A stretch of 64,000 bases of DNA from a virus. The stretch is from positions 38,378 through 102,377 of IMG/VR virus record IMGVR_UViG_3300027708_001885; one strand, written 5' to 3'. Numbering within the stretch: position 1 is the stretch's first letter; each line of letters starts with the position of its first letter. Positions 7,831 through 22,636 of this stretch are shown here, one piece after another. Position numbers and translations under genes: made by a program. The notes beneath the pieces are model-generated. The model searched no databases. It had not been told where the DNA came from and was given only the letters and a program-made list of their open reading frames with translations.

Positions 7831-8419
7831 TGCCGTTCCTAAATGTAATTGATCCACCTTCTTCAACAATGCGCTTTTTTACATCCTCGAACAAGATGGG
7901 CGCAAAGTCCGGAGTCTGCTCAACGCAAACACAATGATAACGAACATCGTTCTCGTCGCTGTACAAGACTTCTCCTGTACGGGCATCGACACCCCTGGCC
8001 TTCTTGACACGATTTGCATGTAAATGACCGTGAACGTTAACACCGAATCGACCTAAGCTGTCACTATGTAAAGGAATATGACTAAAGATCATACCCTCTA
8101 CAACGTGATAGGCTCGCAATTCACGGAAGTAAGCTCTGTATTCGTCATCTCGGAAGATGTCGTGGTTACCGCGGATTAAGACCTTGTCGCCGTTCAAGCG
8201 AGCTAATGTCTTTAATGCCTTACGGTTAATAACCACATCGCCCAAATGATATATTTTATCTGTGGGCTTAACACGTTCGTTCCAAGCCTTGACCATGGCT
8301 TCGTCCATTTCTTCAGGACTGTCCCAAGGACGTAACTTTGTGACACCGTCGTTACGAGTGAACTTACAGACACCCATGTGTCCGAAGTGCGTATCACTCA
8401 CTAAAAATGTCGCTGTCAT
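7814..8419 (-). CDS. calcineurin-like metallophosphoesterase
   Basis: SDTHFGH, HLGD, GNHD and HGHLH motifs. Confidence 0.9.
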   Translation of the reverse strand: MTATFLVSDTHFGHMGVCKFTRNDGVTKLRPWDSPEEMDEAMVKAWNERVKPTDKIYHLGDVVINRKALKTLARLNGDKVLIRGNHDIFRDDEYRAYFRELRAYHVVEGMIFSHIPLHSDSLGRFGVNVHGHLHANRVKKARGVDARTGEVLYSDENDVRYHCVCVEQTPDFAPILFEDVKKRIVEEGGSITFRNGNGPTM

Positions 8420-8657
8420 ATTCTATCCTTTCTTTCTTTACTCGCCCTATTCGGCTAGCCTTGTTCCAATCATAGTCGACTCCATCAGGACACTTTCCGT
8501 CCTTAACAGCGTCAACGCCAAATATGCCACACACTTCAAAGTCCGGACCTTTGATAGTCACAAACATTCCAACGGTCTTGGCAAATGCCATGGCACCATC
8601 TAGTGTGTCGCTTCCGAATAGTGGCAAGCCACTTTTGCTTATTATATTATATATCAT
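8394..8657 (-). CDS. hypothetical protein
   Basis: Likely start at MIYNII, overlapping the upstream stop. Confidence 0.55.
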   Translation of the reverse strand: MIYNIISKSGLPLFGSDTLDGAMAFAKTVGMFVTIKGPDFEVCGIFGVDAVKDGKCPDGVDYDWNKASRIGRVKKERIEYDSDIFSE

Positions 8658-9114
8658 TTTTAAAAGTTCGCCAATCATCAATGTTTGGCTTTTCGTTTTC
8701 ATCATATGTCCAACCTAAAGCCTTCATCATGCGATGCTTGACTAGTAGGTTAGGGCTGCGGAATCTGCCAGTATCTTCAAAACCCATCATGACTCCGACT
8801 TCGCACACTGCACCACTACGGCAGATACCCATTGTACAATGCACGACTACATTCATTCTGTTAGATAATGCATGTTGCAGTAATCGAACAAGCTCGTCGG
8901 CTTGTTCTTGACTACATCTCATTGCTTCGTCTAAAGCAAAATCATTCTTTTCGATATCAAGGAACTCAAAATTATGACGCTCTTTGAATACGTGTTTTGC
9001 TTCTGGCTTCCAACCTGCAGGATCAGTAATGCTGATCAGCATACTATTCTCTCCGGCTTCATGATGAAACCTAGTAGGTATATCATCAGCAGCTACGTTT
9101 TCAATCCAGGGCAT
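8647..9114 (-). CDS. CX5R (protein tyrosine/dual-specificity) phosphatase-like protein
   Basis: VVVHCTMGICRSGAV; SD AAGGAG. Confidence 0.8.
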   Translation of the reverse strand: MPWIENVAADDIPTRFHHEAGENSMLISITDPAGWKPEAKHVFKERHNFEFLDIEKNDFALDEAMRCSQEQADELVRLLQHALSNRMNVVVHCTMGICRSGAVCEVGVMMGFEDTGRFRSPNLLVKHRMMKALGWTYDENEKPNIDDWRTFKNDI

Positions 9115-9869: not shown

Positions 9870-9880
9870 TGGTCAAATAA

Positions 9881-10001
9881 AACAGGCTACTTTTTTTGAT
9901 GGCGATGAAGCCATTGCTCTACCATTGAGCGAATTTGGGAAACCCCAAATGTTGGAATCGAACCAACGTGTCATAAATGACTTTGCTGAACGTAGCCTAA
10001 A
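9881..10001 (-). ncRNA. Y-RNA-like element 2 with circularly permuted tRNA
   Basis: Terminal stem AGGCTAC/GTAGCCT, then TTCAGCAA, T arm, loop-closed acceptor stem, D arm and anticodon-like arm. Confidence 0.7.
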
Positions 10002-10674: not shown

Positions 10675-10676
10675 AT

Positions 10677-10759
10677 ACTTTATTGAAACACACTAACCGC
10701 TCTGTTCCTACTGTATGCCTACAGTTTGTATCCATTCGTTTAATACGTTTCAATAAAGT
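10677..10759 (-). repeat. hairpin cassette A (AAACACAYU/AGUGUGUUU family)
   Basis: About 19-bp stem whose G-U pairs form only on the minus strand; 45-nt insert. Confidence 0.7.
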
Positions 10760-10965
10760 GTCTAGCTACCTACACCACATAGGCCCTAGACTGAGCGGTC
10801 TACTCTGTCTACGTATTTCTTCTTTTGGAAAAGGTTAGCGTTCCCCACCCAATGCGTTTCCAGTATCCCCCAACAGGGACTGATAGTCAATGCACTGCAC
10901 ACTTAGCACTCTCTATGGTGACTGCCCCACCCACTTTCATAACGTCAAAGTGTAACCCGGGTTTC

Positions 10966-11040
10966 TGGTGCCGAATGTCTGGTTCGAACAGACGACCTAT
11001 CGCTTACAAGGCGATTGCACTACCGCTGTGCTAATTCGGC
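10966..11040 (-). tRNA. tRNA-Thr(UGU)
   Basis: ATCGC-CTTGTAA-GCGAT. Confidence 0.93.
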
Positions 11041-11050
11041 TTAAATCTAT

Positions 11051-11323
11051 TTAACCACCTTGTGTGGTATCTCGTACTTCGCTATCTTTGCGAAGTTCTT
11101 CTTCCAACCATAACATCTTTTGATGCCGATACATGTCTTCGCTCAATCCATGCCAACCAATACATTTGCCAGTTGGACTACGACCACAACCGCATGAACC
11201 AAATTCTTTTGGATTTTCTTTAACTCTTACTTGCATATCTTTCTTTCCAAAAATTACATCATAGTTATTGCCAAACTCTTTTTGGCTAACACTATACGGA
11301 CGAGGTCTACTGCCTTTGCTCAT
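11051..11323 (-). CDS. small protein with CDGSH-like Fe-S/Zn motif
   Basis: CGCGRSPTGKCIGWH resembles the CxCxxSxxxPxCDGSH motif. Confidence 0.6.
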   Translation of the reverse strand: MSKGSRPRPYSVSQKEFGNNYDVIFGKKDMQVRVKENPKEFGSCGCGRSPTGKCIGWHGLSEDMYRHQKMLWLEEELRKDSEVRDTTQGG

Positions 11324-11553
11324 CAGCGGACTCTCTTTAAATACTCACGTCCTACAAGTCCTGCTTCAATTTCTTGAAGTGCAGTAATAGTTGGACTGTT
11401 GAGTCCCATGACCTGTTTAGCATGACCACGGCGTAATTCTCGAACTCGAGCAGCCGCGATCAATACTAGATCAAATCTATTGCCTACCGCTTCGACACAT
11501 TTATCCGTGTCAATGTTTTGCGGCGAAAACTTTGTCTTAATTATTTGTACCAT
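11323..11553 (-). CDS. rpoZ: RNA polymerase omega subunit homolog
   Basis: CVEAVGNRFDLVLIAAARVREL...TITALQEIEAG. Confidence 0.88.
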   Translation of the reverse strand: MVQIIKTKFSPQNIDTDKCVEAVGNRFDLVLIAAARVRELRRGHAKQVMGLNSPTITALQEIEAGLVGREYLKRVR

Positions 11554-11579
11554 TTGCTACCTTTTGTTGAAAAAACTTT

Positions 11580-11654
11580 TGGCTCCTCAGACTGGGATCG
11601 AACCAATGACCGATCGGTTAACAGCCGATTGCTCTACCGCTGAGCTACTGAGGA
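11580..11654 (-). tRNA. tRNA-Asn(GUU)
   Basis: ATCGG-CTGTTAA-CCGAT. Confidence 0.95.
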
Positions 11655-11664
11655 ATATATTGTT

Positions 11665-11952
11665 TGGTGCTCCGAGCCGGACTCGAACCGGCACACCTTG
11701 CGGCGAGAGATTTTCTTACCACTATAGTTTTCACTACCCTTGCGGTTTGATGGTCTGGACTATACCTTCATCATAGTATTACTACTTTAGATGCCCGCCG
11801 TCTAGTCTCTACACGTTCCCTTTCGGGCTTCGCTCGGTATTAGCATTTTACAGCCTTCACCGAATTTGACGGGTTCTACTCCTAGCATTTCCACTAGGGC
11901 ACTCAAATTTTACTCTCAAGTCTCTTGTGTCTACCTATTTCACCATCGGAGC
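11665..11952 (-). tRNA. tRNA-Leu(UAA) split by a group I intron (exons 11918-11952 and 11665-11714)
   Basis: Splicing gives AGAGA-CTTAAAA-TCTCT with a long variable arm and ACCA end. Confidence 0.92.
11715..11917 (-). mobile_element. group I intron (IC3-like, ORF-less, 203 nt)
   Basis: Inserted after U34 and ends in G; core motifs AATTCGGTGAA, AATACCGAGC, TGTAGAGACTAGACGG and AAGGTATAGTCC. Confidence 0.92.
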
Positions 11953-11960
11953 ATTACCAA

Positions 11961-12035
11961 ATTAAAACATACTACTAACAGGCGGTCGATATCAGCGTTA
12001 GCCAAGTCACTTACCCGTATGCAGTATGTTTTAAT
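11961..12035 (-). repeat. hairpin cassette B
   Basis: ATTAAAACATACTGC/GTAGTATGTTTTAAT stem; 45-nt insert. Confidence 0.7.
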
Positions 12036-12036
12036 A

Positions 12037-12112
12037 TGGTGCCCTAGGAGAGACTCGAACTCTCAGAACCTGGTTTCTAAGACCAGTACGTATACCATTC
12101 CGTCACCAGGGC
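12037..12112 (-). tRNA. tRNA-Leu(UAG) lacking a long variable arm
   Basis: CTGGT-CTTAGAA-ACCAG; 76 nt total. Confidence 0.88.
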
Positions 12113-12158
12113 ATATATTTTTTAACGAACGTTGCTAAACTTGTTAGCCTATGTGTTT

Positions 12159-12187
12159 ATTATACAGGGTATTTAACAACCTGTCAA
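12159..12187 (-). promoter_or_regulatory. sigma70 consensus promoter internal to the tRNA array
   Basis: TTGACA-17 nt-TATAAT, followed by boxA-like GTTCGTTAAAAA at about 12119-12130. Confidence 0.85.
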
Positions 12188-12203
12188 CCCCTATCTAAAT
12201 TAA

Positions 12204-12423
12204 TTTGTTAAAGTAGTGTCACCATCGTTATAGACACCATTCACCCGTGTAATTAAGCCGGCCGGGACTCGGTACGTCACTTGGGATACTAGTCCAGATG
12301 ATACCCATTGTATGCCGATGCAATCAAGCGATCAGCCGGGTAACGACCCCGCATCCTTCTACTGTTTTGGTCCTTCGAAGAAACCTAGACAGCGTGACAT
12401 TCTCTTGCTAACACTCTAACAAA
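12204..12423 (-). ncRNA. candidate structured ncRNA (~220 nt)
   Basis: GC-rich non-coding segment closed by TTTGTTAGAGT/ACTTTAACAAA, with internal GTCAC/GTGAC and GTGTC/GACAC pairings. Confidence 0.5.
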
Positions 12424-12427
12424 ACTT

Positions 12428-12497
12428 GGTGCACCTAACAGGAATCAAACCTATCTACGTTTGGCTTCAAATCCAACTCGCAATGTCAATCCAGCGC
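12428..12497 (-). pseudogene. degenerate tRNA-like sequence
   Basis: T arm ATAGG-TTTGATT-CCTGT and ACCA end; D arm and acceptor pairing poor. Confidence 0.45.
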
Positions 12498-12578
12498 ATA
12501 AAAATAATCAAGAGCTTGTAGACCAAACTACAATTTACCGGTTTCTAGACGAATTCTCAAACTTGGTGTGTGATCAAA

Positions 12579-13301
12579 TTACCTGGCCCGAACCCACGAA
12601 TAATACCCTCCGTGACTTCCATTGATCAGGCTAAAATGATTTAGATACGGGTGATCTGCAGGGGGATACTTCAAATCAAATTTTGGTTTTGCCCCCAACT
12701 CACTGCTGATTTCTTCTATGACATCTCGGTCCTTGACATTCAACACATCCAGTACTAGTGTGCCGCCTACTTTGAGGCTTTTGAGTGCCTTGTCCCAGTA
12801 GTACTCCTTGGGATAATGCCAGCACCAAGAAAACATAGAAATTATAAGATCTACGTCAGCCGGCCAATCATCGTCGGGTGACAAGATGTTGAATTTATTT
12901 TTGTCCACTTCGGGACTAGTCAACGATTCGTTAAAAACTTCCCACAGATTGTACGAATAGTATTCTTTAGAATAATATGTTGGCTGACTAGGGAATTCAA
13001 CTGTTGTTTTGTCAACTAGAAAAAATTCAATATTTTTGTTTAGATGATGCAAAGTTAAATCAAATGTAGCTATTCCGCTACCAACATCAATTACTTTTTT
13101 TAAATTGGGTACATCAATGTGATTTGATGTTCTATTCCAATTCCCCAATGCAGTATCTTCCAATCTTTTGAAGAATAACTCTCGAGTATTGAATTCTTTC
13201 CAATGTTGCGGGCCTGTTTGCAATTTTGCCACCAGGGATAGTTTGTTGTAATTTTGCCAATAAATTCGTTTGTTGCTGATGGGTAATGATATGCTGTTCA
13301 T
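12579..13301 (-). CDS. class I SAM-dependent methyltransferase
   Basis: VIDVGSG, DLIISMFSWCWHYP, LKVGG. Confidence 0.75.
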   Translation of the reverse strand: MNSISLPISNKRIYWQNYNKLSLVAKLQTGPQHWKEFNTRELFFKRLEDTALGNWNRTSNHIDVPNLKKVIDVGSGIATFDLTLHHLNKNIEFFLVDKTTVEFPSQPTYYSKEYYSYNLWEVFNESLTSPEVDKNKFNILSPDDDWPADVDLIISMFSWCWHYPKEYYWDKALKSLKVGGTLVLDVLNVKDRDVIEEISSELGAKPKFDLKYPPADHPYLNHFSLINGSHGGYYSWVRAR

Positions 13302-13325
13302 ATCAATATTTAGTTTTATCAGATT

Positions 13326-13871
13326 TTAGAATTTGTTTTTGTACACTGCAAAACTTTTGTACTTTCTGATACTACGTTCTATCAGCAACTTGTGCTTTTC
13401 TCTATCAAGAGAACCTTCAATATACAATGTAGTACGGTCTGGATCTTCTCGAACACGATGTACACACGATGTTAGATCTAATGCATAGGCAAATGGAGCA
13501 TTTGGTAAAATTGGAGTAATCCAATCAGTACCGTTATATACTTCAAGTGAATTATTTTTTCCCTGTAATAAAATATGATACCCTGCCGGCTCTGTAGATT
13601 TAATTAAATCTAATTTTTCTGGGGTAGAGTTTTTTATATCGTGATCTATATGTGGACCGACTGCTTTTAATTGCACCTTATATGTAAATATTTCTACTTT
13701 GGAAAATGGTAATTGATCAAACAACCAGTTATATTCAACATAGTTATTTTCTTTACCTAAAATAGTTCGTGTTCTCCAAAATTTCTGTCGAGCACTAACA
13801 TGGTAATCACCCAATTTAAACGTTGGGTTATTTGGTATTGTTATGTCTAGTGGAACAAATAATAATGTCAT
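13326..13871 (-). CDS. hypothetical protein, cupin/2OG-oxygenase-like
   Basis: PHID...H...R pattern; start moved to MTLLF because the annotated extension overlaps tRNA-Tyr. Confidence 0.6.
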   Translation of the reverse strand: MTLLFVPLDITIPNNPTFKLGDYHVSARQKFWRTRTILGKENNYVEYNWLFDQLPFSKVEIFTYKVQLKAVGPHIDHDIKNSTPEKLDLIKSTEPAGYHILLQGKNNSLEVYNGTDWITPILPNAPFAYALDLTSCVHRVREDPDRTTLYIEGSLDREKHKLLIERSIRKYKSFAVYKNKF

Positions 13872-13882
13872 ATTTTTATTTA

Positions 13883-13967
13883 TGGTGGAGTGTACTGGGA
13901 TCGAACCAGTCATGCCCGAAGACGGCGGAGTTACAGTCCGCTGCACCACCATTGGTGCGTCCACTCC
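13883..13967 (-). tRNA. tRNA-Tyr(GUA)
   Basis: GCGGA-CTGTAAC-TCCGC with long variable arm. Confidence 0.88.
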
Positions 13968-13972
13968 ATATA

Positions 13973-14065
13973 TGGTACCAGCGGAGAGGATCGAACTCTC
14001 TCAAGAACGCTAATCTGGCGCTGAAAAGATTTATAAAATCTCTCTGACTTCCAAGTCTCGCTGGC
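13973..14065 (-). tRNA. atypical tRNA with UAU (Ile) anticodon, mini D arm and long variable arm
   Basis: GCCAGCG-A-GACT-TGGA-AGTC-A-GAGAGAT-TTTATAA-ATCTTTT...TTCGATC...ACCA. Confidence 0.75.
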
Positions 14066-14144
14066 ATATATAAACACACTTTATGCTTTGGGAATAACAT
14101 TTCTGTTAAGCAACCATCAACGGTTACGAAGTGTGTTTATATAT
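14066..14144 (-). repeat. hairpin cassette C
   Basis: Perfect 16-bp ATATATAAACACACTT/AAGTGTGTTTATATAT stem; 47-nt insert. Confidence 0.75.
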
Positions 14145-14219
14145 GGCGTCCCTAACGAGATTCGAACTCGTGTACCCGACGTGAAAGGCCGGTGTCCTAG
14201 GCCTCTAGACGATAGGGAC
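14144..14219 (-). tRNA. tRNA-Glu(UUC)
   Basis: CCGGC-CTTTCAC-GTCGG; GCCA end. Confidence 0.95.
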
Positions 14220-14234
14220 AAATTTTACTGTTAA

Positions 14235-14246
14235 TTGTTAAAGAGC
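14235..14246 (-). promoter_or_regulatory. boxA antitermination element
   Basis: GCTCTTTAACAA matches the rrn boxA consensus and lies between promoter and tRNA. Confidence 0.75.
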
Positions 14247-14272
14247 GTATGTTAATTTCTTAACATGTGTTT

Positions 14273-14301
14273 ATTATAGCATAGTTTTCTAACGGTGTCA
14301 A
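14273..14301 (-). promoter_or_regulatory. sigma70 consensus promoter
   Basis: TTGACA-17 nt-TATAAT with extended -10 TG. Confidence 0.88.
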
Positions 14302-14302
14302 G

Positions 14303-14376
14303 TGGTGCTCAAGTAAAGAATCGAACTTTAATTTCCAACGTACCAAGTTGGTGTACTACCATTGTACTACAAGAGC
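14303..14376 (-). tRNA. tRNA-Thr(GGU)
   Basis: CCAAC-TTGGTAC-GTTGG; two U-U mismatches in the acceptor stem. Confidence 0.85.
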
Positions 14377-14391
14377 ATTATAAATAAAATT

Positions 14392-14877
14392 ATGCAAGAA
14401 AATTATAAACCTGTTGATATCAAATATGATAGAAATACTATAATGAATATTTTACAATCAGATAATAAAAATATTGTTAGACCGTGCTCTGTAGTAGAAA
14501 GATTTAGAATATCTAAAATATTGAATTTAAAAGACCCTATAACAAATATATTATACTTTCAAATGAATAAAGAATTTATAGGTGATATCCATAAAGATTA
14601 TACAGGAGAATATTATATAACTCATGCACTGATTTTACCGTTAATGGGTTGTAAAGCCACACATATGAAATGGTTTTTCCAAAACAATAATGTTACCAAC
14701 AATTCATTGTTAGGACCGACTGGGAAACCAATTCCTTTGTTATTGCATAGTAATGCGACCTGTATAGATACTGTCAATTGCAATACTCCCATTATAGTTA
14801 AGATAGATGATTGGCATTCAATTGAAAATAATTCAATTGAAGAGGTTAGTCATCTTATAAGTATAAGATTTGAGTAA
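14392..14877 (+). CDS. hypothetical protein, cupin/2OG-oxygenase-like
   Basis: IHKD...WHSIEN pattern; start at MQENY after TATAAATA. Confidence 0.6.
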   Translation: MQENYKPVDIKYDRNTIMNILQSDNKNIVRPCSVVERFRISKILNLKDPITNILYFQMNKEFIGDIHKDYTGEYYITHALILPLMGCKATHMKWFFQNNNVTNNSLLGPTGKPIPLLLHSNATCIDTVNCNTPIIVKIDDWHSIENNSIEEVSHLISIRFE

Positions 14878-15773
14878 TGGAGCATATTATAAATATCTAT
14901 ATGAAAATAACACCTATAAAAGATTCTTGGGGCTGCACTATTGAATTTGATAATCCTATGGATTTTTTTCAATATGACAATAACTACTGGCGTGATATGT
15001 TATATAGGAAAAAAATAATAATTTTTAAACGTATGAATTTTGAATTATTAGATTTTGCAAAATTTGGAACATACTTTGGGTCACCTTGGGACAAATGCGA
15101 TTACACATACAGCCGTGAAATAGGATTAACATGTGAAGATGTTGATAAAAATTATAGTGTATCTCATTTCAGTAATAAAATTCTCGGAATAGCAGATAGT
15201 GAAATGCCATGGCACGCTGATATTCCAAACCGAAGTTATAATCCTTATCCCCATAGAGCTTTATGGATTGTTAAGAATCCCAATCCTGATATATCGGGAA
15301 AAACAAAATGGCTCAATATTGAGGATTGTTTTAAACACTTAACTCCTAAGATGAAAGAATTATTGCCTAGAGTTAAGATAGAACAACAAAGTTGGTATGC
15401 ACCCGGCACCGATTTAGGAATTTATGATTTTATTAAAATACACCCTATTACAAAAAAACCAAGTTTGCGATTAAACTTTTATAATACAGATAAAATGAAA
15501 GGTGCTTGGATTAAAAGTGTCTATATTGATAATGAATTGCAATCTGATTGCAGTGTGATAAAAATGTTTATTGAACATTTAGAAAAAATTCCCGAGCTAG
15601 TACATTATCACCAATGGGACAACCAGGATATAGTTATATATGATAATTGGTCTTTTTTACACGGACGTACAGCATTACAGTTAGGCAACACTCCCGATAC
15701 TCAAGAACGTGCATTTTATAGGATGAATATTGATCATGTTGCTAATGATGTTTGGAACAATCAAAATATCTGA
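14877..15773 (+). CDS. TauD/TfdA family dioxygenase
   Basis: WHAD, HPIT and W...DIVIYDNW..LHGR motifs; true start may be 14901. Confidence 0.85.
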   Translation: MEHIINIYMKITPIKDSWGCTIEFDNPMDFFQYDNNYWRDMLYRKKIIIFKRMNFELLDFAKFGTYFGSPWDKCDYTYSREIGLTCEDVDKNYSVSHFSNKILGIADSEMPWHADIPNRSYNPYPHRALWIVKNPNPDISGKTKWLNIEDCFKHLTPKMKELLPRVKIEQQSWYAPGTDLGIYDFIKIHPITKKPSLRLNFYNTDKMKGAWIKSVYIDNELQSDCSVIKMFIEHLEKIPELVHYHQWDNQDIVIYDNWSFLHGRTALQLGNTPDTQERAFYRMNIDHVANDVWNNQNI

Positions 15774-16342
15774 TTTCCACCTTCGACTGCAATATCGACA
15801 ATAAGATGTATTCTAAAATCATCACCGTTGTTTATTAATTGATGAGGCAATCTATTATTAAGCTGACTTAACATTTTAAAAGGCATATGCTCAGTAATAG
15901 AAGAATCTTCTCCACTGAATAATACCATATTGTTTGTTTTAAACGGTATATGAAATCTTGAATACATTTCAAAATAATCACAAGGATCAGTATGCAGACC
16001 AACCTGACTTTTTGATTCTAATCGTACAATCATTATTCTTCCTAATGCAATACCATCAACTTGTTTATAAATCCATTCAGATGCTAAACATGCATTTTTG
16101 TATATATCGGTAGCAGGAAAATTATTTTCGCATTCTGTAATCATGCACCATTCTTCAAGTGATGTTGGCAATTTGCCTTTTGGTATTTTATTTCCTCGAA
16201 TATGAATGGCTTTGCTGGTATTGAACACGGAATTCCGTCTACTAGGATCTAAAATAGTTTCCCATTGAATAGTGTTTATTTCCTCTAACGCAGAAAAAAA
16301 TATACAATCAGGCACTTCGGTAATTGTTTTAACTAACGGCAT
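15761..16342 (-). CDS. aspartyl/asparaginyl beta-hydroxylase-domain oxygenase
   Basis: GRIMIVRL, HTD, RFHIP, H...N...RIHLIVD. Confidence 0.75.
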   Translation of the reverse strand: MPLVKTITEVPDCIFFSALEEINTIQWETILDPSRRNSVFNTSKAIHIRGNKIPKGKLPTSLEEWCMITECENNFPATDIYKNACLASEWIYKQVDGIALGRIMIVRLESKSQVGLHTDPCDYFEMYSRFHIPFKTNNMVLFSGEDSSITEHMPFKMLSQLNNRLPHQLINNGDDFRIHLIVDIAVEGGNQIF

Positions 16343-16358
16343 ATATTAATTTATGCAT

Positions 16359-16433
16359 TGGTCTCGCCACCAAGGATCGAACTTGGATCAAAAGTTTAGG
16401 AAACTTCTATTCTATCCATTGAACTACAGCGAG
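16359..16433 (-). tRNA. tRNA-Arg(CCU)
   Basis: GAAGT-TTCCTAA-ACTTT. Confidence 0.9.
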
Positions 16434-16435
16434 AA

Positions 16436-16510
16436 TGGTCCGGCGTAACAGAATCGAACTGCTGTTTAGGAGGTAGAAGCTCCCTGTATTTTCCACTATA
16501 CGAACGCCAG
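16436..16510 (-). tRNA. tRNA-Arg(UCU)
   Basis: GGGAG-CTTCTAC-CTCCT. Confidence 0.9.
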
Positions 16511-16513
16511 ATG

Positions 16514-16587
16514 TGGTAGGTCATGACGGTATTGAACCGCCGTATCTTGGATGTCGACCAAGCACTCTACCTTTGAGTTAATGACCT
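16514..16587 (-). tRNA. tRNA-Val(GAC), C at position 33
   Basis: CTTGG-TCGACAT-CCAAG. Confidence 0.85.
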
Positions 16588-17253
16588 ATGTTTATTGTTG
16601 CTTCTTCCAAAATTCCAACCATGTGGTAACGGATCTGTTTCTAAATGAAGTTTGTCATCCACTCCGTCTGTTATAAACTTTCTATTTTTATATGATGCCG
16701 AACCTGCATTCAAAAAATGTTTGCTATTTTTTCTTCCATTTATTGATTTTATTTCAGCACTATGAACTTCGCAATAACTAGCAAATCTTGTCTTTACTGG
16801 CAACTCACAGCAGATACATTTTTTGATTTCAAAATTTATTTTTCTTCCCAAAATCCAACCATCTGGCAATTCTTTGCTAATTGATATTTTTTTAGATACT
16901 TTTAATTCCGAGTTATAAATCCATTTTGTTCCAAACTGAGTATTTCCCGACCCTGTTTGTTTTTTGCTCTGAGCTTTAGAAAGTTTTCTTCTAAGCCATC
17001 CGTATAATTTATTTGATGGGCGATTAGCAACCATCATTACAGCGGCATGTAATAACGCAGAATTGTCTGGATTTATTTTCACTAGTAACTGATGTGCCAG
17101 ATAATGTTCTTCTGGTGTAAGATATACTAAGTTAATTTTATCATCCTTTCCACCTAGACATCGTGGTACAATGTGATGCCACTCACCGTATTCATTTAAC
17201 GTTCTTACTGATGCTCGAATAACAAGGTTATCGTATATTTTTTGATAGTTCAT
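16567..17253 (-). CDS. HNH homing endonuclease
   Basis: MNYQKIY..., EWHHIVPRCLGG.D...NLVYLTPEEHYLAH; stop codon lies inside tRNA-Val. Confidence 0.88.
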   Translation of the reverse strand: MNYQKIYDNLVIRASVRTLNEYGEWHHIVPRCLGGKDDKINLVYLTPEEHYLAHQLLVKINPDNSALLHAAVMMVANRPSNKLYGWLRRKLSKAQSKKQTGSGNTQFGTKWIYNSELKVSKKISISKELPDGWILGRKINFEIKKCICCELPVKTRFASYCEVHSAEIKSINGRKNSKHFLNAGSASYKNRKFITDGVDDKLHLETDPLPHGWNFGRSNNKHRSLTQR

Positions 17254-17275
17254 ATTGTATTTACCATCAAGTTTC

Positions 17276-17315
17276 ACCGTGTCGAGGTAGTGTTCTACCA
17301 TTAAACTAAGGACCT
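17276..17315 (-). pseudogene. 5' half of a tRNA-Val(GAC), truncated by the HNH insertion
   Basis: AGGTCCT-TA-GTTT-AATGGTA-GAAC-A-CTACC-TCGACAC-GGT, then unrelated sequence. Confidence 0.75.
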
Positions 17316-17323
17316 GAATAGGT

Positions 17324-17473
17324 TTTCGAGAGACCAGCTATCTTTCTGAAGGACTCACTGGCTTGTCTCGTATGAGCGAGTTTAAACTACCCTGTATAAT
17401 TCTACTGGTGTGTCATGCATCAGCCTAATGCACTAGAATACAAGGGACTCGAATCTCTACGTCTATCTCGAAA
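17324..17473 (-). ncRNA. candidate structured ncRNA (~150 nt)
   Basis: Terminal TTTCGAGA/TCTCGAAA stem with nested helices and a possible pseudoknot. Confidence 0.5.
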
Positions 17474-17474
17474 C

Positions 17475-17595
17475 TGGTGCCGCTGCTGGGATTCGAACCC
17501 AGATAACCCCCTTGACATGGATTAAGAAAATTGCTGAACGTACTCTATACAGAGTCACCCTTTTATAAGGTGTCCTACCATTAGGCGACAGCGGC
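17475..17595 (-). ncRNA. CCA-ended tRNA with the UUCAGCAA module inserted in its anticodon arm
   Basis: Acceptor GCCGCTG/CAGCGGC, TTCGAAT T loop and ACCA end; about 45-nt insert containing ACTCT-GTAT-AGAGT-AC-GTTCAGCAA. Confidence 0.75.
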
Positions 17596-17602
17596 AATAA
17601 CT

Positions 17603-17677
17603 TGGTGGTAATGACTGGATTTGAACCAGTAACACTCTCCGTATGAAGGAGGAAGACTACCATTGTCCTACATTACC
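17603..17677 (-). tRNA. tRNA with CAU anticodon (Met or Ile2)
   Basis: CTCC-TTCATAC-GGAG; ACCA end. Confidence 0.85.
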
Positions 17678-17759
17678 ATATAGAAACACACTGGCTTGCA
17701 AGACTCCTACTAACCTTTCGATAGATGTCGCAGTTAGTATTCAATGTGTTTTTATATGG
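17676..17759 (-). repeat. hairpin cassette D
   Basis: CCATATAAAAACACATTG/CAGTGTGTTTCTATATGG stem; 48-nt insert. Confidence 0.7.
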
Positions 17760-17793
17760 TAGGGGTTTTATGAGTTGATGCATAAATAAGTGT

Positions 17794-18702
17794 ATGCCTA
17801 ATTATACAACATTTACATGTTCTTGCATAGTCTGCAAACAACCAAAAACCTCAAAAGGTATTCATTCTCATTATCTCATTTCTCATACAGAAGAAGGACG
17901 AGCAAGAAATCGTAAAAATCGTCTTGCTGGTGGATTATTAGGTTCTGAAATTGCTAAACAAAATGCACAGCAAATTCAAAATCAATATTTAGAAAATCCT
18001 AACAAATGCAAACAGTGCGATGTCTCTCTTACATACGAGCAGCGTCATAATAAATTCTGTTCAACATCCTGTTCGGCAAGTTTTTACAACAAGGATCGAA
18101 AAGGTGTTGCTCTAGATACTGCTGTGAAACAAAAGATTTCAGATAGTGTTAAAAAGTTTAATCTAGAAAATCCTTACACCAAATCAAAACAGATGTTTAG
18201 CAGACTATCGTATTGTTGTATATGCAACTCTGTCATACAAAACAAAATTGTTAAAACTTGTTCTTCTAAATGCAAGTCAGTGCTGTTATCAAACAACATG
18301 TCCGATAGAATCAAACAAAACAGAAGAAGTAATTATCGCAGAGATAAAAGATCTTATCTCGAAGAATCATTTGAAACTTGGTTGTTGGATAACAACATTT
18401 CTCTAAAATATGAAACTGAATACACTATTAAAAATCATATTACACAGAAATGGTATTTCGTGGATTTCTACTTTCCCGAAATAAATCTTATAGTTGAACT
18501 TGACGGGAAACAGCACGAAAAACCTAAACACAAAGAAGCAGACAAACTTCGTGATGAATACATCACTACTAATCTAAACTTAAATGTTTTTAGAATTTCT
18601 TATGATGAATATCAAGCTGGTTCTAAAATAAACGAATTACTAAAATTATTGGTGAGGCAGGTGGGGTTCGAACCCACAAGGAGATTTCTCTCGCCAGATT
18701 AA
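17794..18702 (+). CDS. Zn-finger + DUF559/Vsr-like PD-(D/E)xK endonuclease (homing-type)
   Basis: Repeated CxxC and FCSxxC motifs; YFVDFY...IVELDGKQH...D..RD; ends antisense within tRNA-Lys. Confidence 0.82.
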   Translation: MPNYTTFTCSCIVCKQPKTSKGIHSHYLISHTEEGRARNRKNRLAGGLLGSEIAKQNAQQIQNQYLENPNKCKQCDVSLTYEQRHNKFCSTSCSASFYNKDRKGVALDTAVKQKISDSVKKFNLENPYTKSKQMFSRLSYCCICNSVIQNKIVKTCSSKCKSVLLSNNMSDRIKQNRRSNYRRDKRSYLEESFETWLLDNNISLKYETEYTIKNHITQKWYFVDFYFPEINLIVELDGKQHEKPKHKEADKLRDEYITTNLNLNVFRISYDEYQAGSKINELLKLLVRQVGFEPTRRFLSPD

Positions 18703-18737
18703 AAGTCTGGTACCGCAGCCACTTCGGTGTCTGCCCC
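18650..18737 (-). tRNA. tRNA-Lys(UUU) with long variable arm
   Basis: CCAGA-CTTTTAA-TCTGG; variable arm CGAGAGAAATCTCCTT. Confidence 0.82.
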
Positions 18738-18741
18738 ATAT

Positions 18742-18815
18742 TGGTCCCACACCACGGTAATGATCCGTGTTTTACCGGTTAAGAGCCGGTTACATCACCT
18801 TAATGTTTGTGAGGG
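18742..18815 (-). tRNA. tRNA-Lys(CUU), atypical T loop
   Basis: ACCGG-CTCTTAA-CCGGT; T loop ATCATTA. Confidence 0.78.
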
Positions 18816-18876
18816 TTAGTTGTATTAAATTGATTTAATGTGCCAACCCTAGACCAATACGGGATCTAGAGCGACA

Positions 18877-18897
18877 CTAACGTTTAGCACGTTTCAT
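18877..18897 (-). CDS. minigene MKRAKR* with strong SD and a hairpin at the stop
   Basis: AAAGGAGA-5 nt-ATG AAA CGT GCT AAA CGT TAG. Confidence 0.5.
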   Translation of the reverse strand: MKRAKR

Positions 18898-18925
18898 ATC
18901 GTTCTCCTTTGAACATAATTAAAAT

Positions 18926-19001
18926 TGGTACCAAGAGTCGGGATCGAACCGACCACACCCGATTCTTCAGACCGGTGCTCTACCAACTGAGCTATCTTGG
19001 C
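18926..19001 (-). tRNA. tRNA-Phe(GAA)
   Basis: CCGGT-CTGAAGA-ATCGG. Confidence 0.93.
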
Positions 19002-19012
19002 ATTGATGAATA

Positions 19013-19105
19013 TGATAATAGGGGTGACCACTGAGAAGTCTCACTCAGACTACAACTTTCACAGAGTTGGGTGCCAATTTTACACTATGGTCACCCCTAT
19101 TATCA
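19013..19105 (-). tRNA. tRNA-His(GUG)-like, atypical T loop, acceptor extended to an 18-bp stem, no encoded CCA
   Basis: CAACT-CTGTGAA-AGTTG; G-1:C73; T loop TGAGACTT. Confidence 0.7.
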
Positions 19106-19112
19106 CATAAAC

Positions 19113-19187
19113 TGGCAGGGGCTGAAGGTAACGCTCCTTCTCACCTAGTTTCAAAGACTAGTATCTGCTCTTATCGATTTAACCCCT
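19113..19187 (-). tRNA. tRNA-Gln(UUG), atypical
   Basis: CTAGT-CTTTGAA-ACTAG; T loop AGCGTTA; AGGGG/CCCCT-G acceptor. Confidence 0.72.
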
Positions 19188-19193
19188 AAATAT

Positions 19194-19255
19194 AACAGGA
19201 TGCTTATTTTTCAATTAACAGTTGAATTGGATAAGTTTGCTGAACGCATCCTAAA
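19194..19255 (-). ncRNA. Y-RNA-like element 3 carrying an isolated GUU anticodon hairpin
   Basis: AGGATGC/GCATCCT stem, TTCAGCAA, TTCAA-CTGTTAA-TTGAA. Confidence 0.7.
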
Positions 19256-19257
19256 AC

Positions 19258-19333
19258 TGGTACCCTACCCTGGTTTCGATCCAGGTACCCCCGCCTTATC
19301 AAGACGGTGCTCTCCCAATTGAGCTAGTAGGGC
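19258..19333 (-). tRNA. tRNA-Ile(GAU)
   Basis: CCGTC-TTGATAA-GGCGG. Confidence 0.9.
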
Positions 19334-19338
19334 ATATT

Positions 19339-19416
19339 TGGTGCGTCCCGAGAGGTTCGAACTCCCGACCCCCGGCTTCGTAAACCAGTGCTCTAATCCA
19401 GCTGAGCTAGGGACGC
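19339..19416 (-). tRNA. tRNA-Arg(ACG)
   Basis: CTGGT-TTACGAA-GCCGG. Confidence 0.93.
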
Positions 19417-19424
19417 ATTAAATT

Positions 19425-19500
19425 TGGAGTAGGTAACAGGAGTCGAACCTGCATAAAACAGATTTGCAATCTGCCCCCTAGCCTTTCGGGTCATACCTAC
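19425..19500 (-). tRNA. tRNA-Cys(GCA)
   Basis: GCAGA-TTGCAAA-TCTGT; U73. Confidence 0.9.
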
Positions 19501-19507
19501 ATAATAA

Positions 19508-19573
19508 AACAGGATCAACTTTTTAGTTTCTGGATAAAAGAAAGTTTGTTAGTTTTGCTGAACTGATCCTAAA
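19508..19573 (-). ncRNA. Y-RNA-like element 4 carrying a 5-bp/7-nt hairpin
   Basis: AGGATCA/TGATCCT stem, TTCAGCAA, TTTCT-TTTATCC-AGAAA. Confidence 0.65.
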
Positions 19574-19575
19574 AC

Positions 19576-19651
19576 TGGTCTCTCCTGTGGGACTCGAACC
19601 CACGAAATCCTCGCCCCAAACGAGGTGGCATAGCCGCTAACCGAAAGAGAG
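19576..19651 (-). tRNA. tRNA-Pro(UGG), second copy
   Basis: CCTCG-TTTGGGG-CGAGG. Confidence 0.88.
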
Positions 19652-19692
19652 ATAAAATTAACATGATCAATACCACTATATAAATATGTGAT

Positions 19693-20343
19693 ATGAAAAA
19701 AATAGGAATTGCAATTACCGGGGAAATATACAGTATACCCCGACCCGGCTTTGTTCATCAACGTAATTGGACATTAACCAGGGACAATATCAAAACCAAT
19801 TTAATTGGTTCTTTTGAAGAAAATAATGTTGTTAATGTTTACACTACAACATATGAAAATGAAAAAGTAGAAGAAGTAGTTAAATTTTATTCACCTACTA
19901 AATCTTTAGTGCTATCTCCTGAAGGTAGTCATCAAAGACTTACCTACATTAAGAGCATGGAAAATCTTTTAGATCAAGATCTAGATTTTATCATAGCAGC
20001 CCGATTTGATCTAGCGTTTGATCAAGAAGTTGTTAACTTCAATTGGGATTATGATAAAATGAATTTTGTTTCTAAGGAAATGATGGGCTGGGAAACTTTA
20101 CAGTTTGTCACAGACACATTCTTTGGATTTCCTAAAAAATATCTACAATCTTTTATCAATAGCATTAAAAATTCACATGCTCATCTTGAAGAAACACAGC
20201 CTGGAAACATCGGTGTTCATTACATGCACGATATCTACAGGCATATGGTCATGGAAGTCAATAACGAAAATATACATTTCCTAGTTCCTGACAAGCAATG
20301 GGCTAATCAAATTCCGGGTATGTATAGGATAGTTAGAGCCTAA
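19693..20343 (+). CDS. hypothetical protein (GT-like, RFD motif)
   Basis: KIGIAITG...DFIIAARFDL; preceded by TATAAATA. Confidence 0.65.
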   Translation: MKKIGIAITGEIYSIPRPGFVHQRNWTLTRDNIKTNLIGSFEENNVVNVYTTTYENEKVEEVVKFYSPTKSLVLSPEGSHQRLTYIKSMENLLDQDLDFIIAARFDLAFDQEVVNFNWDYDKMNFVSKEMMGWETLQFVTDTFFGFPKKYLQSFINSIKNSHAHLEETQPGNIGVHYMHDIYRHMVMEVNNENIHFLVPDKQWANQIPGMYRIVRA

Positions 20344-20346
20344 AAT

Positions 20347-20421
20347 TGGCATCCCCTGTTCGATTTGCACGAACCCTGGTGATTTTGGAGATCACTGTGC
20401 TGCTGCTGACACTAAGGAGAT
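20347..20421 (-). tRNA. tRNA-Trp(CCA)
   Basis: GTGAT-CTCCAAA-ATCAC; G73. Confidence 0.85.
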
Positions 20422-20427
20422 ATAAAA

Positions 20428-20515
20428 TGGCGGAGCGTGTAGGAATCGAACCTACTCACCCATTTCTGGATGACGGGTTAGCAACCCGCTGCCTTGACCG
20501 GTCGGCCAACGCTCC
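20428..20515 (-). tRNA. tRNA-Ser(GCU)
   Basis: GCGGG-TTGCTAA-CCCGT; long variable arm. Confidence 0.93.
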
Positions 20516-20521
20516 TAAAAT

Positions 20522-20635
20522 TGGTACGACTGGTAGGTCCTGCCCCTACAAGGGCTGCGAGTTATACTCATCGCCCCGGCCCCATTCCGTGCTATAAGCA
20601 CAGCGGGAGGTCTGCTATATTCCACTCACAGTCGC
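20522..20635 (-). ncRNA. tRNA-like RNA (114 nt) with enlarged anticodon and variable arms
   Basis: GCGACTG/CAGTCGT-ACCA acceptor; T stem GTAGG/CCTAC with a GGCAGGA loop. Confidence 0.65.
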
Positions 20636-20642
20636 ATATATA

Positions 20643-20670
20643 ATTATACACGAGTTAAGTAGAATGTCAA
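20643..20670 (-). promoter_or_regulatory. sigma70 promoter
   Basis: TTGACA-16 nt-TATAAT. Confidence 0.75.
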
Positions 20671-20676
20671 GTTATT

Positions 20677-20771
20677 TGGTGGAAAGCGGAGGAGTCGAAC
20701 CCCACCCTGTTCTTCACAAGGACCCAGTTTTCAAGACTGGTCGGGGAACCAACTCCCCTGCATCACTTTCC
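20677..20771 (-). tRNA. tRNA-Ser(UGA) with 8/4 Sec-like fold
   Basis: 8-bp acceptor GGAAAGTG/CGCTTTCC, 4-bp T stem, 6-bp D stem with TTGG loop, CTTGAAA anticodon loop. Confidence 0.78.
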
Positions 20772-20777
20772 ATTATT

Positions 20778-20854
20778 TGGCGGTCCCAAGGGGATTCGAA
20801 CCCCTGCCGACGGCGTGACAAGCCGCTGTACTGACCAGGCTATACTATGGGACC
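20778..20854 (-). tRNA. tRNA-Asp(GUC)
   Basis: GCGGC-TTGTCAC-GCCGT. Confidence 0.93.
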
Positions 20855-20860
20855 TAAAAC

Positions 20861-20936
20861 TGGCGCCACAGACGGGAATCGAACCCGCCTCGATCGGATA
20901 GACAATCCGGTGCCCTACCCAGAGGACTACTGTGGC
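20861..20936 (-). tRNA. tRNA-Asp(GUC), second copy, U37
   Basis: CCGGA-TTGTCTA-TCCGA. Confidence 0.85.
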
Positions 20937-20940
20937 ATAT

Positions 20941-21015
20941 TGGCATCCTGCACGGGTATCGATCCCGTTCCTACACCTTGAAAGGGTGTTGATCTAGCCA
21001 GTAATCTAGCAGGAT
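20941..21015 (-). tRNA. tRNA-Glu(UUC), second copy
   Basis: ACACC-CTTTCAA-GGTGT. Confidence 0.85.
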
Positions 21016-21021
21016 ATAATT

Positions 21022-21096
21022 TGGTGCTCTGTTACGGAATCGAACCGCATTCTGATGCTTACAAGACACCTGCATCGCCATCAATGCTTACAGAGC
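21022..21096 (-). tRNA. tRNA-Thr(UGU), second copy
   Basis: GGTGT-CTTGTAA-GCATC. Confidence 0.85.
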
Positions 21097-21101
21097 CAAT
21101 T

Positions 21102-21176
21102 TGGTGGAGGCCGAGGGAATCGAACCCTTCTAGTCACGATCCTTGCAAGGGAACGCCGCAGCCCACTGCTGCCCCC
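21102..21176 (-). tRNA. atypical tRNA-Ala(UGC) with mini D arm
   Basis: GGGGGC-A-GCAG-TGGG-CTGC; CTTGCAA loop; G3:U70; ACCA end. Confidence 0.75.
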
Positions 21177-21711
21177 AAATTATATCTTGCCATCTGATAG
21201 CATTCTTACTATCATAATCAAGCCTATTATTTTTGCTTTGATTATCTCGAGCCGGCAAGTATTGTAAATTATCCTGATGATGAAGTCCACCTTTTGATAA
21301 TGGTACCTTGTGGTCGACTTGGAATCCTTCAGGAACAAATTGATAAATTTGTCTAATTAAAATTAAATCAGCATCGTCAGGTATCGCATTTCTTTTCCGT
21401 GCTCTGTAAGCATAGACATTTGCTTTATTGCCTGCTTTTTTATGTTCTTCAGACACCCTGCCTTTTTTATCCCAGTAAGCATTTCTACCTGCTGAAATTT
21501 TTGTAGAGTGCTCTGCTGTCCTTGGAGGAAGTTTTACACCCTTTCTGTTTGGCATTTTTGCCTTACCAGAAATAATTGCTTCCTTAACACCTTTAGCAAT
21601 TTTTTCTTTAGTATCTGCTGTTCTAATTCTGCTGTTAGCACATGCTCTTGAGCAAAATTTTCCAGATCCAAAGGATCCATTGTGTTTGGCATCGCATTTA
21701 AAACATATCAT
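21130..21711 (-). CDS. HNH homing endonuclease with N-terminal Zn finger
   Basis: GSGKFCSRACAN and VDHKVPLSKGGLHHQDNLQYL...N; stop codon inside tRNA-Ala. Confidence 0.88.
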   Translation of the reverse strand: MICFKCDAKHNGSFGSGKFCSRACANSRIRTADTKEKIAKGVKEAIISGKAKMPNRKGVKLPPRTAEHSTKISAGRNAYWDKKGRVSEEHKKAGNKANVYAYRARKRNAIPDDADLILIRQIYQFVPEGFQVDHKVPLSKGGLHHQDNLQYLPARDNQSKNNRLDYDSKNAIRWQDIIWGQQWAAAFPCKDRD

Positions 21712-21766
21712 AATAGTTCTCCCAATTGTATTTATACAATTGAACTCATCTACTACAAATTACATA

Positions 21767-21842
21767 TGGCTCCATCTGTTGGATTCGAACCAACCTCTTC
21801 CGGTTAACAGCCGGGGGTACTCACCGAGAATACTAAGATGGA
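21767..21842 (-). tRNA. tRNA-Asn(GUU), second copy
   Basis: CCGG-CTGTTAA-CCGG; GCCA end. Confidence 0.87.
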
Positions 21843-21853
21843 ATAGAATATTT

Positions 21854-21940
21854 TGGTGGAACCCCAAGGAATCGAACCTCTTGCCACCACCCACCTTATT
21901 TTGGCTACGATTTTACAGACCGCAAGCGGGAAAGGGCTCC
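21854..21940 (-). tRNA. D-armless tRNA-like RNA with GUA (Tyr) anticodon
   Basis: GGAGCCC/GGGTTCC acceptor, 9-nt linker in place of the D arm, TGCGGT-CTGTAAA-ATCGTA, TTCGATT T loop, ACCA end. Confidence 0.7.
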
Positions 21941-21943
21941 ATT

Positions 21944-22070
21944 AAACACACTCTAGCAGTTTATCTTTCTGCCTCTCTATACTATGTACTCGGAACGAAT
22001 GTGTGTATTAAAGTACTTTCCGCTACGCTGTCGTGCCCGTTGGAGGGGTCAAGTGAAAGCACTTTAATAC
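21944..22070 (-). repeat. hairpin cassette E plus an adjacent long hairpin
   Basis: ACACATTC/GAGTGTGT stem with a 43-nt insert; GTATTAAAGTGCTTTC/GAAAGTACTTTAATAC stem. Confidence 0.6.
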
Positions 22071-22607: not shown

Positions 22608-22636
22608 ATTATACATTTATTTAGTCTCGTTGTCAA
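22608..22636 (-). promoter_or_regulatory. sigma70 promoter P2 of the tRNA array
   Basis: TTGACA-17 nt-TATAAT. Confidence 0.88.

Follow-up and report, generated by a model that had tools for sequence, protein, structure and literature searches.

Clamp hairpins with exchangeable cargos in the transfer RNA arrays of uncultured phages

It has been known for fifty years that the transfer RNA (tRNA) clusters of phages, in T4 and T5, encode a handful of small stable RNAs whose function is unknown. What, then, are the long hairpins that fill the spacers between tRNA genes in the DNA of an uncultured virus? Here we analyse a 64-kb stretch of DNA (hereafter referred to as the window), which is the right-hand part of the 102-kb IMG/VR record IMGVR_UViG_3300027708_001885, and report four hairpins, termed clamp hairpins, in which a near-constant stem (the clamp) encloses an interior (the cargo) that differs between copies. 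In uncultured jumbo phages, the same kind of gene as in T4 and T5 forms a large modular family, in which one near-constant stem is joined to the CCA end of a tRNA and to the first base of the next tRNA, and at least 72 different inserts are exchanged between near-identical phages. The evidence supports the hairpins as structures at the RNA level that are specific to one strand and linked to the tRNA transcript, and we give about even odds (a probability of roughly 0.5) to the reading that they are small structured RNA genes in a polycistronic tRNA operon, each built from a conserved clamp and an exchangeable cargo. If the inserts are active, the family would amount to an RNA display system found in nature, with scaffold and cargo, that relies on the enzymes of tRNA processing, as do the tRNA–guide-RNA arrays that engineers devised independently, and the function of phage stable RNAs would become directly testable. 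If the inserts are filler, the family would still mark long tRNA operons for processing by a signal that is specific in sequence.

Hairpins between the tRNA genes of the window

The window (39% GC) belongs to a record whose completeness CheckV puts at 22%, and is therefore a fragment of a jumbo phage genome. It contains 34 tRNA genes, all on the minus strand and located at 7.2–21.9 kb (ARAGORN). Besides the tRNAs, homing-endonuclease genes and an RNA polymerase omega subunit homologue are encoded in the array, one of its tRNAs is interrupted by a group I intron, and several further structured stretches have no assigned family. The hairpins and hairpin-like elements of this array are as follows.

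10675–10761, minus strand: clamp hairpin copy 1; 22-column terminal stem with 21 pairs, three of them G–U; 43-nucleotide (nt) cargo
11956–12040, minus strand: clamp hairpin copy 2; 20-column stem with 19 pairs; 45-nt cargo
14063–14147, minus strand: clamp hairpin copy 3; 19 columns with 18 pairs, including 17 base pairs (bp) of perfect stem; 47-nt cargo
17674–17761, minus strand: clamp hairpin copy 4; 20 columns with one A·C mismatch; canonical arms ACCAUAUAAAAACACAUUG / CAGUGUGUUUCUAUAUGGU
19010–19108, minus strand: tRNA-His-like element; 22-bp terminal stem with other arms around a GUG-loop cloverleaf, without a canonical T loop or CCA
21944–22006, minus strand: weak fifth copy; 8-bp core stem ACACAUUC/GAGUGUGU; abuts a tRNA-like RNA at 21857–21941
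22005–22070, minus strand: strong variant-arm hairpin at the array head; 16-bp stem GUAUUAAAGUGCUUUC/GAAAGUACUUUAAUAC with a 34-nt interior; z = −4.1

Copies 1–4 are real hairpins, far beyond chance. Folded as minus-strand RNA, they reach −27.2, −36.4, −29.3 and −29.7 kcal/mol, with z-scores of −5.99, −6.58, −7.00 and −5.30, respectively, and none of 200 shuffles of each copy folds as well. The window contains four perfect inverted repeats (stem of at least 13, loop of 25–80), compared with 0.05 in dinucleotide shuffles, and two matches to the strict core pattern AAACACA..TGTGTTT, compared with 0.03 expected. An initial annotation, made from the letters of this DNA, had listed five such cassettes. 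Four of them stand, whereas the fifth (z = −1.27, with 20 of 200 shuffles equally good) is on its own indistinguishable from chance; the tRNA-like RNA that it abuts gives a weak tRNA-Sec-like match, and its 5′ arm overlaps the 3′ arm of the strong hairpin at 22005–22070. The latter, absent from that list, has arms related to those of the clamps (UAUUAAAGUGCUUUC), and similar arms occur at the array starts of four other viral loci (L022, L027, L030 and L038).

The four copies fit their tRNA neighbours closely. Their 3′ arms end 0–3 nt ahead of a tRNA 5′ end, in agreement with the initial placement of the cassettes just upstream of tRNA genes. Copy 1, which has the variant core GAAACGUAU/GUGUGUUUC, ends 1 nt short of tRNA-Gly(UCC) and is preceded by a conserved RNA of about 207 nt. 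Copy 2 starts with the A-CCA of tRNA-Leu(UAG) (12037–12112) and stops 3 nt before an intron-containing tRNA (11665–11952). Copy 3, with the canonical core AAACACAC/GUGUGUUU and two small hairpins inside its cargo, occupies the entire gap from the CCA of tRNA-Glu (14144) to base 1 of tRNA-Ile(UAU) (14065). The arms of copy 4 show the A·C mismatch and the U·G wobble of the family, and its final GG forms bases 1 and 2 of tRNA-Met (17603–17677). Copies 2 and 3 begin on the preceding CCA, so that the hairpin takes up the whole inter-tRNA spacer; the full register of the clamp runs from the preceding CCA to base 1 or 2 of the next tRNA. The combination of conserved arms with unrelated inserts, described at the outset, is confirmed for copies 1–4, the inserts of which are 43–47 nt long and mutually unrelated. 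An argument from G–U pairs for selection on RNA is clear for copy 1, which has three such pairs and forms a stem of 22 on the minus strand versus 17 on the plus strand, but not for the other stems, which, being nearly palindromic, read about as well on one strand as on the other.

The surroundings of copies 1 and 4 deserve separate mention. The stretch of about 207 nt between tRNA-Thr and copy 1 (10760–10966, minus strand) is matched at 72–84% identity in the tRNA arrays of at least 15 other viral loci; in the related locus L001 the homologue lies at 13797–14003, and in both loci that were checked, L001 and L022, the next element is a CACUUUAU-type clamp. The stretch has no Rfam match and is probably another unnamed structured RNA. 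Beside copy 4, a DUF559/Vsr-like endonuclease open reading frame (ORF; 17794–18702, plus strand) runs into the opposite-strand tRNA-Lys(UUU) (region 17757–18737), and an orphan CCCCTACCA at 17757–17765, where the tRNA end usually meets copy 4, matches the usual tRNA-Lys end upstream of clamps. The endonuclease gene looks like an insertion between tRNA-Lys and copy 4, and L001 shows the same layout.

A phage-specific family

Locus L001, reached through a neighbouring protein (76% identity), carries the same elements, among them two tandem copies whose arms are identical to those of window copy 4 and whose interiors are unrelated; one protein-based scan for relatives found none. The family was collected by an exact scan of IMG/VR with the 17-nt arm CCATATAAAAACACAYT, which occurs in at least 120 viral contigs. 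Among the matches listed, the partner arm AGTGTGTTT(C/T)TATATGG follows 29–123 nt downstream in 139 of 149 occurrences, giving stems of 17 or more bp. As a control, the same 17-mer has 120 matches in 596 Gb of bacterial and archaeal genomes, and three of these have the partner arm; all three lie on contigs of metagenome-assembled genomes, two of which are only 1.5–1.8 kb long. This difference between viral and cellular matches indicates that the clamp hairpin is a phage feature rather than a chance palindrome or a host signal.

Again among the matches listed, 117 of the 121 viral loci are tRNA arrays (1,971 tRNAs in 1.07 Mb). Of the 116 sense-strand elements in this set, 93 have an arm whose initial CCA is also the end of the upstream tRNA, and 44 share the last one or two G of the arm with the start of the following tRNA; the polarity of the arm relative to the tRNA strand is 96:3. 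The clamps that appear flipped are almost all junctions between tandem copies; in such tandems (L001, 2385–2624; L054, 13611–13943), the 3′ arm and the next 5′ arm can pair around the spacer, which allows alternative folds. Widely distributed and specific to phages, the clamp family seems not to have been described before. None of the families of Rfam 15 corresponds to it, and a scan of 18 kb at E ≤ 1 gave no match at the hairpins; BLAST searches of 50,697 GenBank phage records with each hairpin and with the region as a whole returned tRNA matches only or none; and no description of a clamp hairpin was found in the literature searched.

Conserved arms and exchangeable cargos

The clamp consists of an AU-rich base and the core AAACACAYU/ARUGUGUUU. 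Two imperfections are kept, an A·C mismatch at stem position 8 (86/108) and a U·G wobble at position 16 (74/108), which separate an all-AU lower stem from the upper stem ACACAYU/ARUGUGU. Where arms differ, they co-vary, as in TATCTA/TAGATA, TATCAA/TTGATA and others. The class of copy 4 comprises 18 distinct sequences. In their alignment, pairing holds for 94% of cells, and compensatory double changes occur at 11 of 31 pairs, six of which lie in the two cargo helices. None of 500 shuffles reached this pairing and covariation, and register slides also fall far short of it.

The cargos behave differently. The 104 non-redundant elements contain 97 distinct interiors, which fall into 72 classes and have a GC content of 49% versus 39% for the genome. 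Cargo length ranges from 29 to 123 nt (median 50) among the matches listed, so that neither the constant insert size nor the uniform small RNAs proposed in the initial annotation hold for the family. The inserts are conserved rather than junk: each window insert that can be traced has conserved homologues in other phages, with compensatory changes. The cargo of copy 1 recurs in L114 under different, compensated arms, and that of copy 3 in L023 and L264–L266 with a compensated helix and different outer arms. Cargos are also exchanged as cassettes. All five element pairs in which both flanks are at least 93% identical carry unrelated cargos, whereas 33 of the 35 cargo-related pairs sit between different genes, with the cargo about 95% conserved across the different flanks. 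Related cargos keep one orientation (32 pairs versus 1), and no inverted cassettes were found among them. In seven of the 97 cargos, a T-arm-like GGTTCRAWTCC hairpin lies 2–3 nt before the 3′ arm, the place that it has in a tRNA.

Guide or antisense cassettes, another early suggestion, have gained no support so far. Across the 102 kb of their phage, the cargos of the window match nothing else significantly, and no complementarity to the inserts was found in these 102 kb, in 1.4 Mb of related phage DNA or in GenBank phages. Within the 1.4 Mb, 236 of 273 cargo matches lie in clamp contexts; most of the others represent homologues with variant arms or T-arm words. We therefore set a guide or antisense function aside, as there is no match outside clamps in the available related DNA or in GenBank phages.

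Predicted production of the hairpin RNAs

Four perfect sigma-70 consensus promoters lie in the array and point in the same direction as the tRNAs.

12159–12187, minus strand: perfect-consensus sigma-70 promoter with AAACACAT after the −10 box
14273–14301, minus strand: twin of the preceding promoter, also of perfect consensus and with AAACACAT after the −10 box
20643–20670 and 22608–22636, minus strand: further perfect sigma-70 promoters, from the promoter scan

The hairpin units would be co-transcribed with the tRNAs from these promoters, and the register on CCA and on base +1 implies that the tRNA-processing machinery would define the ends of the hairpin RNAs. The 3′ end would be generated by host RNase P as it cuts the downstream tRNA. 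The 5′ end may come either from a cut after the CCA by an enzyme of the RNase E or RNase Z/BN type, or from host RNase III, which would cut both strands of the stem before the ends are trimmed; either route would also free the upstream tRNA. The predicted product is a discrete, exonuclease-resistant RNA of about 75–90 nt, in which the clamp would confer stability and possibly serve as a protein handle, and the cargo would carry the specific activity; the shared arms could provide short homology for cargo swapping between phages. As far as the sequences allow a judgement, processing stems that release discrete small RNAs remain the most economical mechanism, as the initial annotation had proposed. 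A more specific version, which we regard as doubtful but worth stating, is that the core AAACACAYU/ARUGUGUUU with its A·C mismatch is a handle bound by a phage or host protein in a trans-acting ribonucleoprotein system, and that the cargo is a specificity module (a decoy, guide or sponge) in phage–host or phage–phage conflict. Cargo swapping would then be adaptive, as is the turnover of spacers or cassettes in other conflict systems.

Several points weigh against the hairpins being RNA genes. Their transcription, cut sites and stability are all things that we infer. RNase P should be impeded by a leader that is paired as far as position −1, and 3′ exonucleases by a blunt 20-bp helix right after the CCA, so that a route by RNase P alone is unlikely without an extra nuclease. 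Three complete relatives were searched for genes for RNase III, RNase Z, a CCA-adding enzyme, RtcB and Ro60 (TROVE), and none was found. Across the 104 non-redundant elements used to compare arms with cargos, the 3′ arm has an information content of about 2 bits per position, against at most 1.5 bits in the flanking tRNAs and about 0 in the cargo, but the conservation of the arms is partly by construction, because the exact 5′ arm was the collecting probe. The cargos alone are mildly more structured than shuffles (mean z = −0.46), and this weak structure together with their free length means that many of them may be no more than filler. For none of the cargos did the searches yield a target, a partner protein or a known motif.

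The hindrance of RNase P and of 3′ trimming also makes a double-strand nuclease such as host RNase III a plausible first step, and the weak lower and stronger upper stem would suit an RNase III-first route. The enzyme genes named above were likewise not found across five related records (three of them complete); since these records have no phage RNase III gene, cleavage of this kind would need the host enzyme. A DUF2828 protein, which we take to be possibly Ro-related, is present in only one of the three complete relatives. The ORF families most common beside the arrays, a metallophosphoesterase (35 of 147 loci) and a dual-specificity-type phosphatase (22 of 147), are too infrequent to be obligate partners.

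Alternative explanations

The hairpins might, at odds well below even, be pure processing or insulator stems, that is, RNase III sites that separate the tRNAs and prevent misfolding, around an interior of drifting and recombining filler. The stems of 17–22 bp found here are of the size that RNase III needs, and the hairpin covers exactly the trailer of one tRNA plus the leader of the next. The A·C mismatch and the U·G wobble divide a weak lower from a strong upper stem, as in a cut-and-fall-apart design; insert length is free, the cargos alone are barely structured, and other arm sequences serve at other tRNA junctions. Filler does not account for cargo helices with compensatory changes, however, or for cargos that are GC-rich relative to the genome, held in one orientation and conserved across different flanks, and the near-invariant arm sequence is more than a structure-only site requires. 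Furthermore, four of the five related records have only one or two strict-core clamps each and the fifth has none (0 for a reversed control pattern), and most of their tRNA junctions are without one, which argues against a general processing need. The inverted repeats of 17–20 bp around variable DNA could also represent a selfish palindromic mini-element, comparable to miniature inverted-repeat transposable elements (MITEs) or Correia elements, with the arms as inverted terminal repeats, spreading in tRNA arrays through recombination or with the help of some enzyme, and neutral to the phage. The same cargo found between different genes, different cargos at the same site in near-identical phages, the abundance of homing-endonuclease genes in the arrays and the tandem copies in L001 would all fit such spread. 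With regard to a target-site duplication beside the inverted repeats, TA often stands on both sides of the hairpin, and TA is itself palindromic and also constitutes tRNA bases 72 and 73. We nevertheless consider a mini-element unlikely. The interiors are unrelated (72 classes in 104 elements), unlike the conserved interiors of MITEs, and the copies are confined to tRNA arrays instead of being scattered over the genome. Their polarity relative to transcription (96:3) and their cargo orientation are fixed, the arm doubles as a functional tRNA CCA, covariation keeps the pairing, and no transposase candidate was found.

We put no more weight on the idea that the hairpins are relics or mimics of tRNAs with a lengthened acceptor stem, acting as decoys for tRNA-directed host nucleases or other enzymes. 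Their overall size is tRNA-like (85–88 nt), some cargos contain the T-arm-like hairpin, and the element at 19010–19108, called as tRNA-His by ARAGORN and given no call by the Rfam tRNA model, is a tRNA-His-like cloverleaf within a 22-bp stem. Clamps also mostly follow tRNA-Lys (63 of 93, among the matches listed), a frequent target of anticodon nucleases. Yet 90 of the 97 cargos have no T-loop motif, the four cargos of the window have no tRNA feature according to ARAGORN and Rfam, and hairpins resembling an anticodon stem-loop are not enriched (3 observed versus 3.8 expected), which speaks against a decoy of the anticodon stem-loop. A signal at the DNA level, whether an internal promoter, with its −10 box right after the CCA and its −35 supplied by the T loop, or a palindrome or cruciform to which a protein binds, seems to us the least probable of these explanations. 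The 5′ arm (CCA-TATAAA-AACACAT) does resemble the −10 and start region of two true array promoters, and a T-loop TTCGAA lies 17 nt upstream. The likeness between the arm core and the sequence after the −10 box, pointed out in the initial annotation, is thus present in two of the four perfect promoters, those with AAACACAT, but the arms themselves score below the promoter threshold: no arm is among the 56 promoter-like sites of a threshold scan that detected the four perfect promoters nearby, the standard being −35 and −10 hexamers 16–18 nt apart with T at the last −10 position. The covarying variants TATCTA, TATCAA and TATGAA abolish the −10 box yet keep the pairing. On both counts, we rejected the promoter interpretation of the arms. 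For a DNA signal, the 3′ arm would be superfluous, and the fixed polarity and the G–U pairs in copy 1 and in cargo helices favour RNA.

Comparison with known systems

Among known systems, the stable RNAs encoded in the tRNA clusters of T5 (RNAIII, RNAI, RNAIV and others) and T4 (rnaC and rnaD, that is, species 1 and 2) come closest to the clamp hairpins. Like the clamp hairpins, these are non-tRNA elements of a phage tRNA cluster, on the tRNA strand and 0–6 nt from a tRNA. They are about 100–140 nt long, a range that overlaps with that of the clamp hairpins, and are annotated as stable, with a function that is likewise unknown. T5 RNAIII has a 12-bp terminal stem that closes a multi-hairpin interior and abuts tRNA-His, and T4 rnaC contains a T-arm-like hairpin. 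By contrast, BLAST against the GenBank phages, including T4 and T5, shows no sequence similarity, and the T4 and T5 RNAs have neither the AAACACA clamp nor a stem that starts on CCA, nor is there evidence in them of a constant stem with exchangeable cargo across phages.

The hairpins cut by RNase III (the R1.1-type sites of the T7 early transcript, rRNA stalks and rRNA intervening sequences) share with the clamps a long stem between the units of one transcript, a variable or functional interior and mismatches that subdivide the stem, and could explain how a helix-buried tRNA 3′ end is freed. Copies 1–4 offer about two helical turns of double-stranded RNA (19–22 columns with at most one mismatch), and the clamps run from a CCA to base 1 or 2 of the next tRNA, with array promoters upstream on the same strand. 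They differ in that their arm sequence is conserved beyond structural need, their cargos form conserved classes and they occupy few junctions per array; RNase III cleavage is here a prediction. Hairpins linked to tRNAs (the tRNA–pre-miRNAs of murine gammaherpesvirus 68, plant tRNA–snoRNAs and engineered tRNA–guide-RNA arrays) borrow RNase P and RNase Z for their ends. All of these come from eukaryotes or from engineering and lack a conserved clamp, whereas the clamp hairpins have tRNAs on both sides and a stem that overlaps the CCA and base +1.

Y RNAs and YrlA (RF02553), which occur in phages (PMC4201824), resemble the clamp hairpins in their paired 5′ and 3′ ends, their long conserved stem and their variable, sometimes tRNA-like module. 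In YrlA, the motif GNCGAAN0–1G near the 5′ end is the contact for Ro60/Rsr (Chen et al. 2014, PMC4201824). GNCGAA occurs in none of the six window hairpins and in four of 104 family members, which is chance level; the RF02553 model gave no match at the hairpins at E ≤ 1 (gathering score 69 bits), and no TROVE (Ro60) gene was found in the record of the window or in the five relatives (three complete). With motif, model match and Ro60 gene all absent, and no T or D arms in the window copies, we rejected a Y RNA identity. A tRNA identity was rejected as well: copies 1–5 are called by neither ARAGORN nor RF00005 and have no T-loop motif. Ribozymes of the HDV-like theta class sit right after phage tRNAs (10.1101/2023.06.13.544163); this identity was discarded because no Rfam ribozyme matches and no nucleotide is conserved across the cargos, and the topology differs, as the 3′ end forms a contiguous helix with the first 17–20 nt that follow the tRNA, rather than there being the nested P1/P2 double pseudoknot.

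Other features of the array

The two ORF families most common beside the arrays are both represented in the window, and these phosphatase-type proteins may be RNA-end healing enzymes.

7814–8419, minus strand: calcineurin-like metallophosphoesterase, of the ORF family most frequent beside arrays
8647–9114, minus strand: dual-specificity-type phosphatase, of the second commonest family

The tRNA that follows copy 2 (11665–11952, minus strand) is a type II tRNA with the acceptor GCUCCGA...UCGGAGC-A-CCA, is not called by ARAGORN and is split by the group I intron (Rfam Intron_gpI, 61 bits, 11734–11921). The omega subunit homologue lies at 11323–11553 on the minus strand (Pfam RNA_pol_Rpb6, E = 3e-13). 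At 14235–14247 (minus strand), 26 nt downstream of the promoter at 14273–14301, CGCTCTTTAACAA closely matches boxA, the antitermination element of rRNA operons; this sequence suggests that the tRNA array may be subject to rrn-type antitermination. At 9880–9999 (minus strand), there is a weak match to the Y RNA-like YrlA (26.5 bits versus the gathering score of 69). Several tRNA trailers have GUUUUAGGAU..GUUCAGCAA stems in common, which gives this array another family of stem-plus-cargo modules besides the clamps. In other phages, 5 nt separate the end of a GOLLD RNA (Rfam, 202 bits; L047, 2633–3098) from a canonical clamp (L047, 3103), and L047 and L020 contain permuted tmRNA genes; such arrays gather many kinds of structured RNA.

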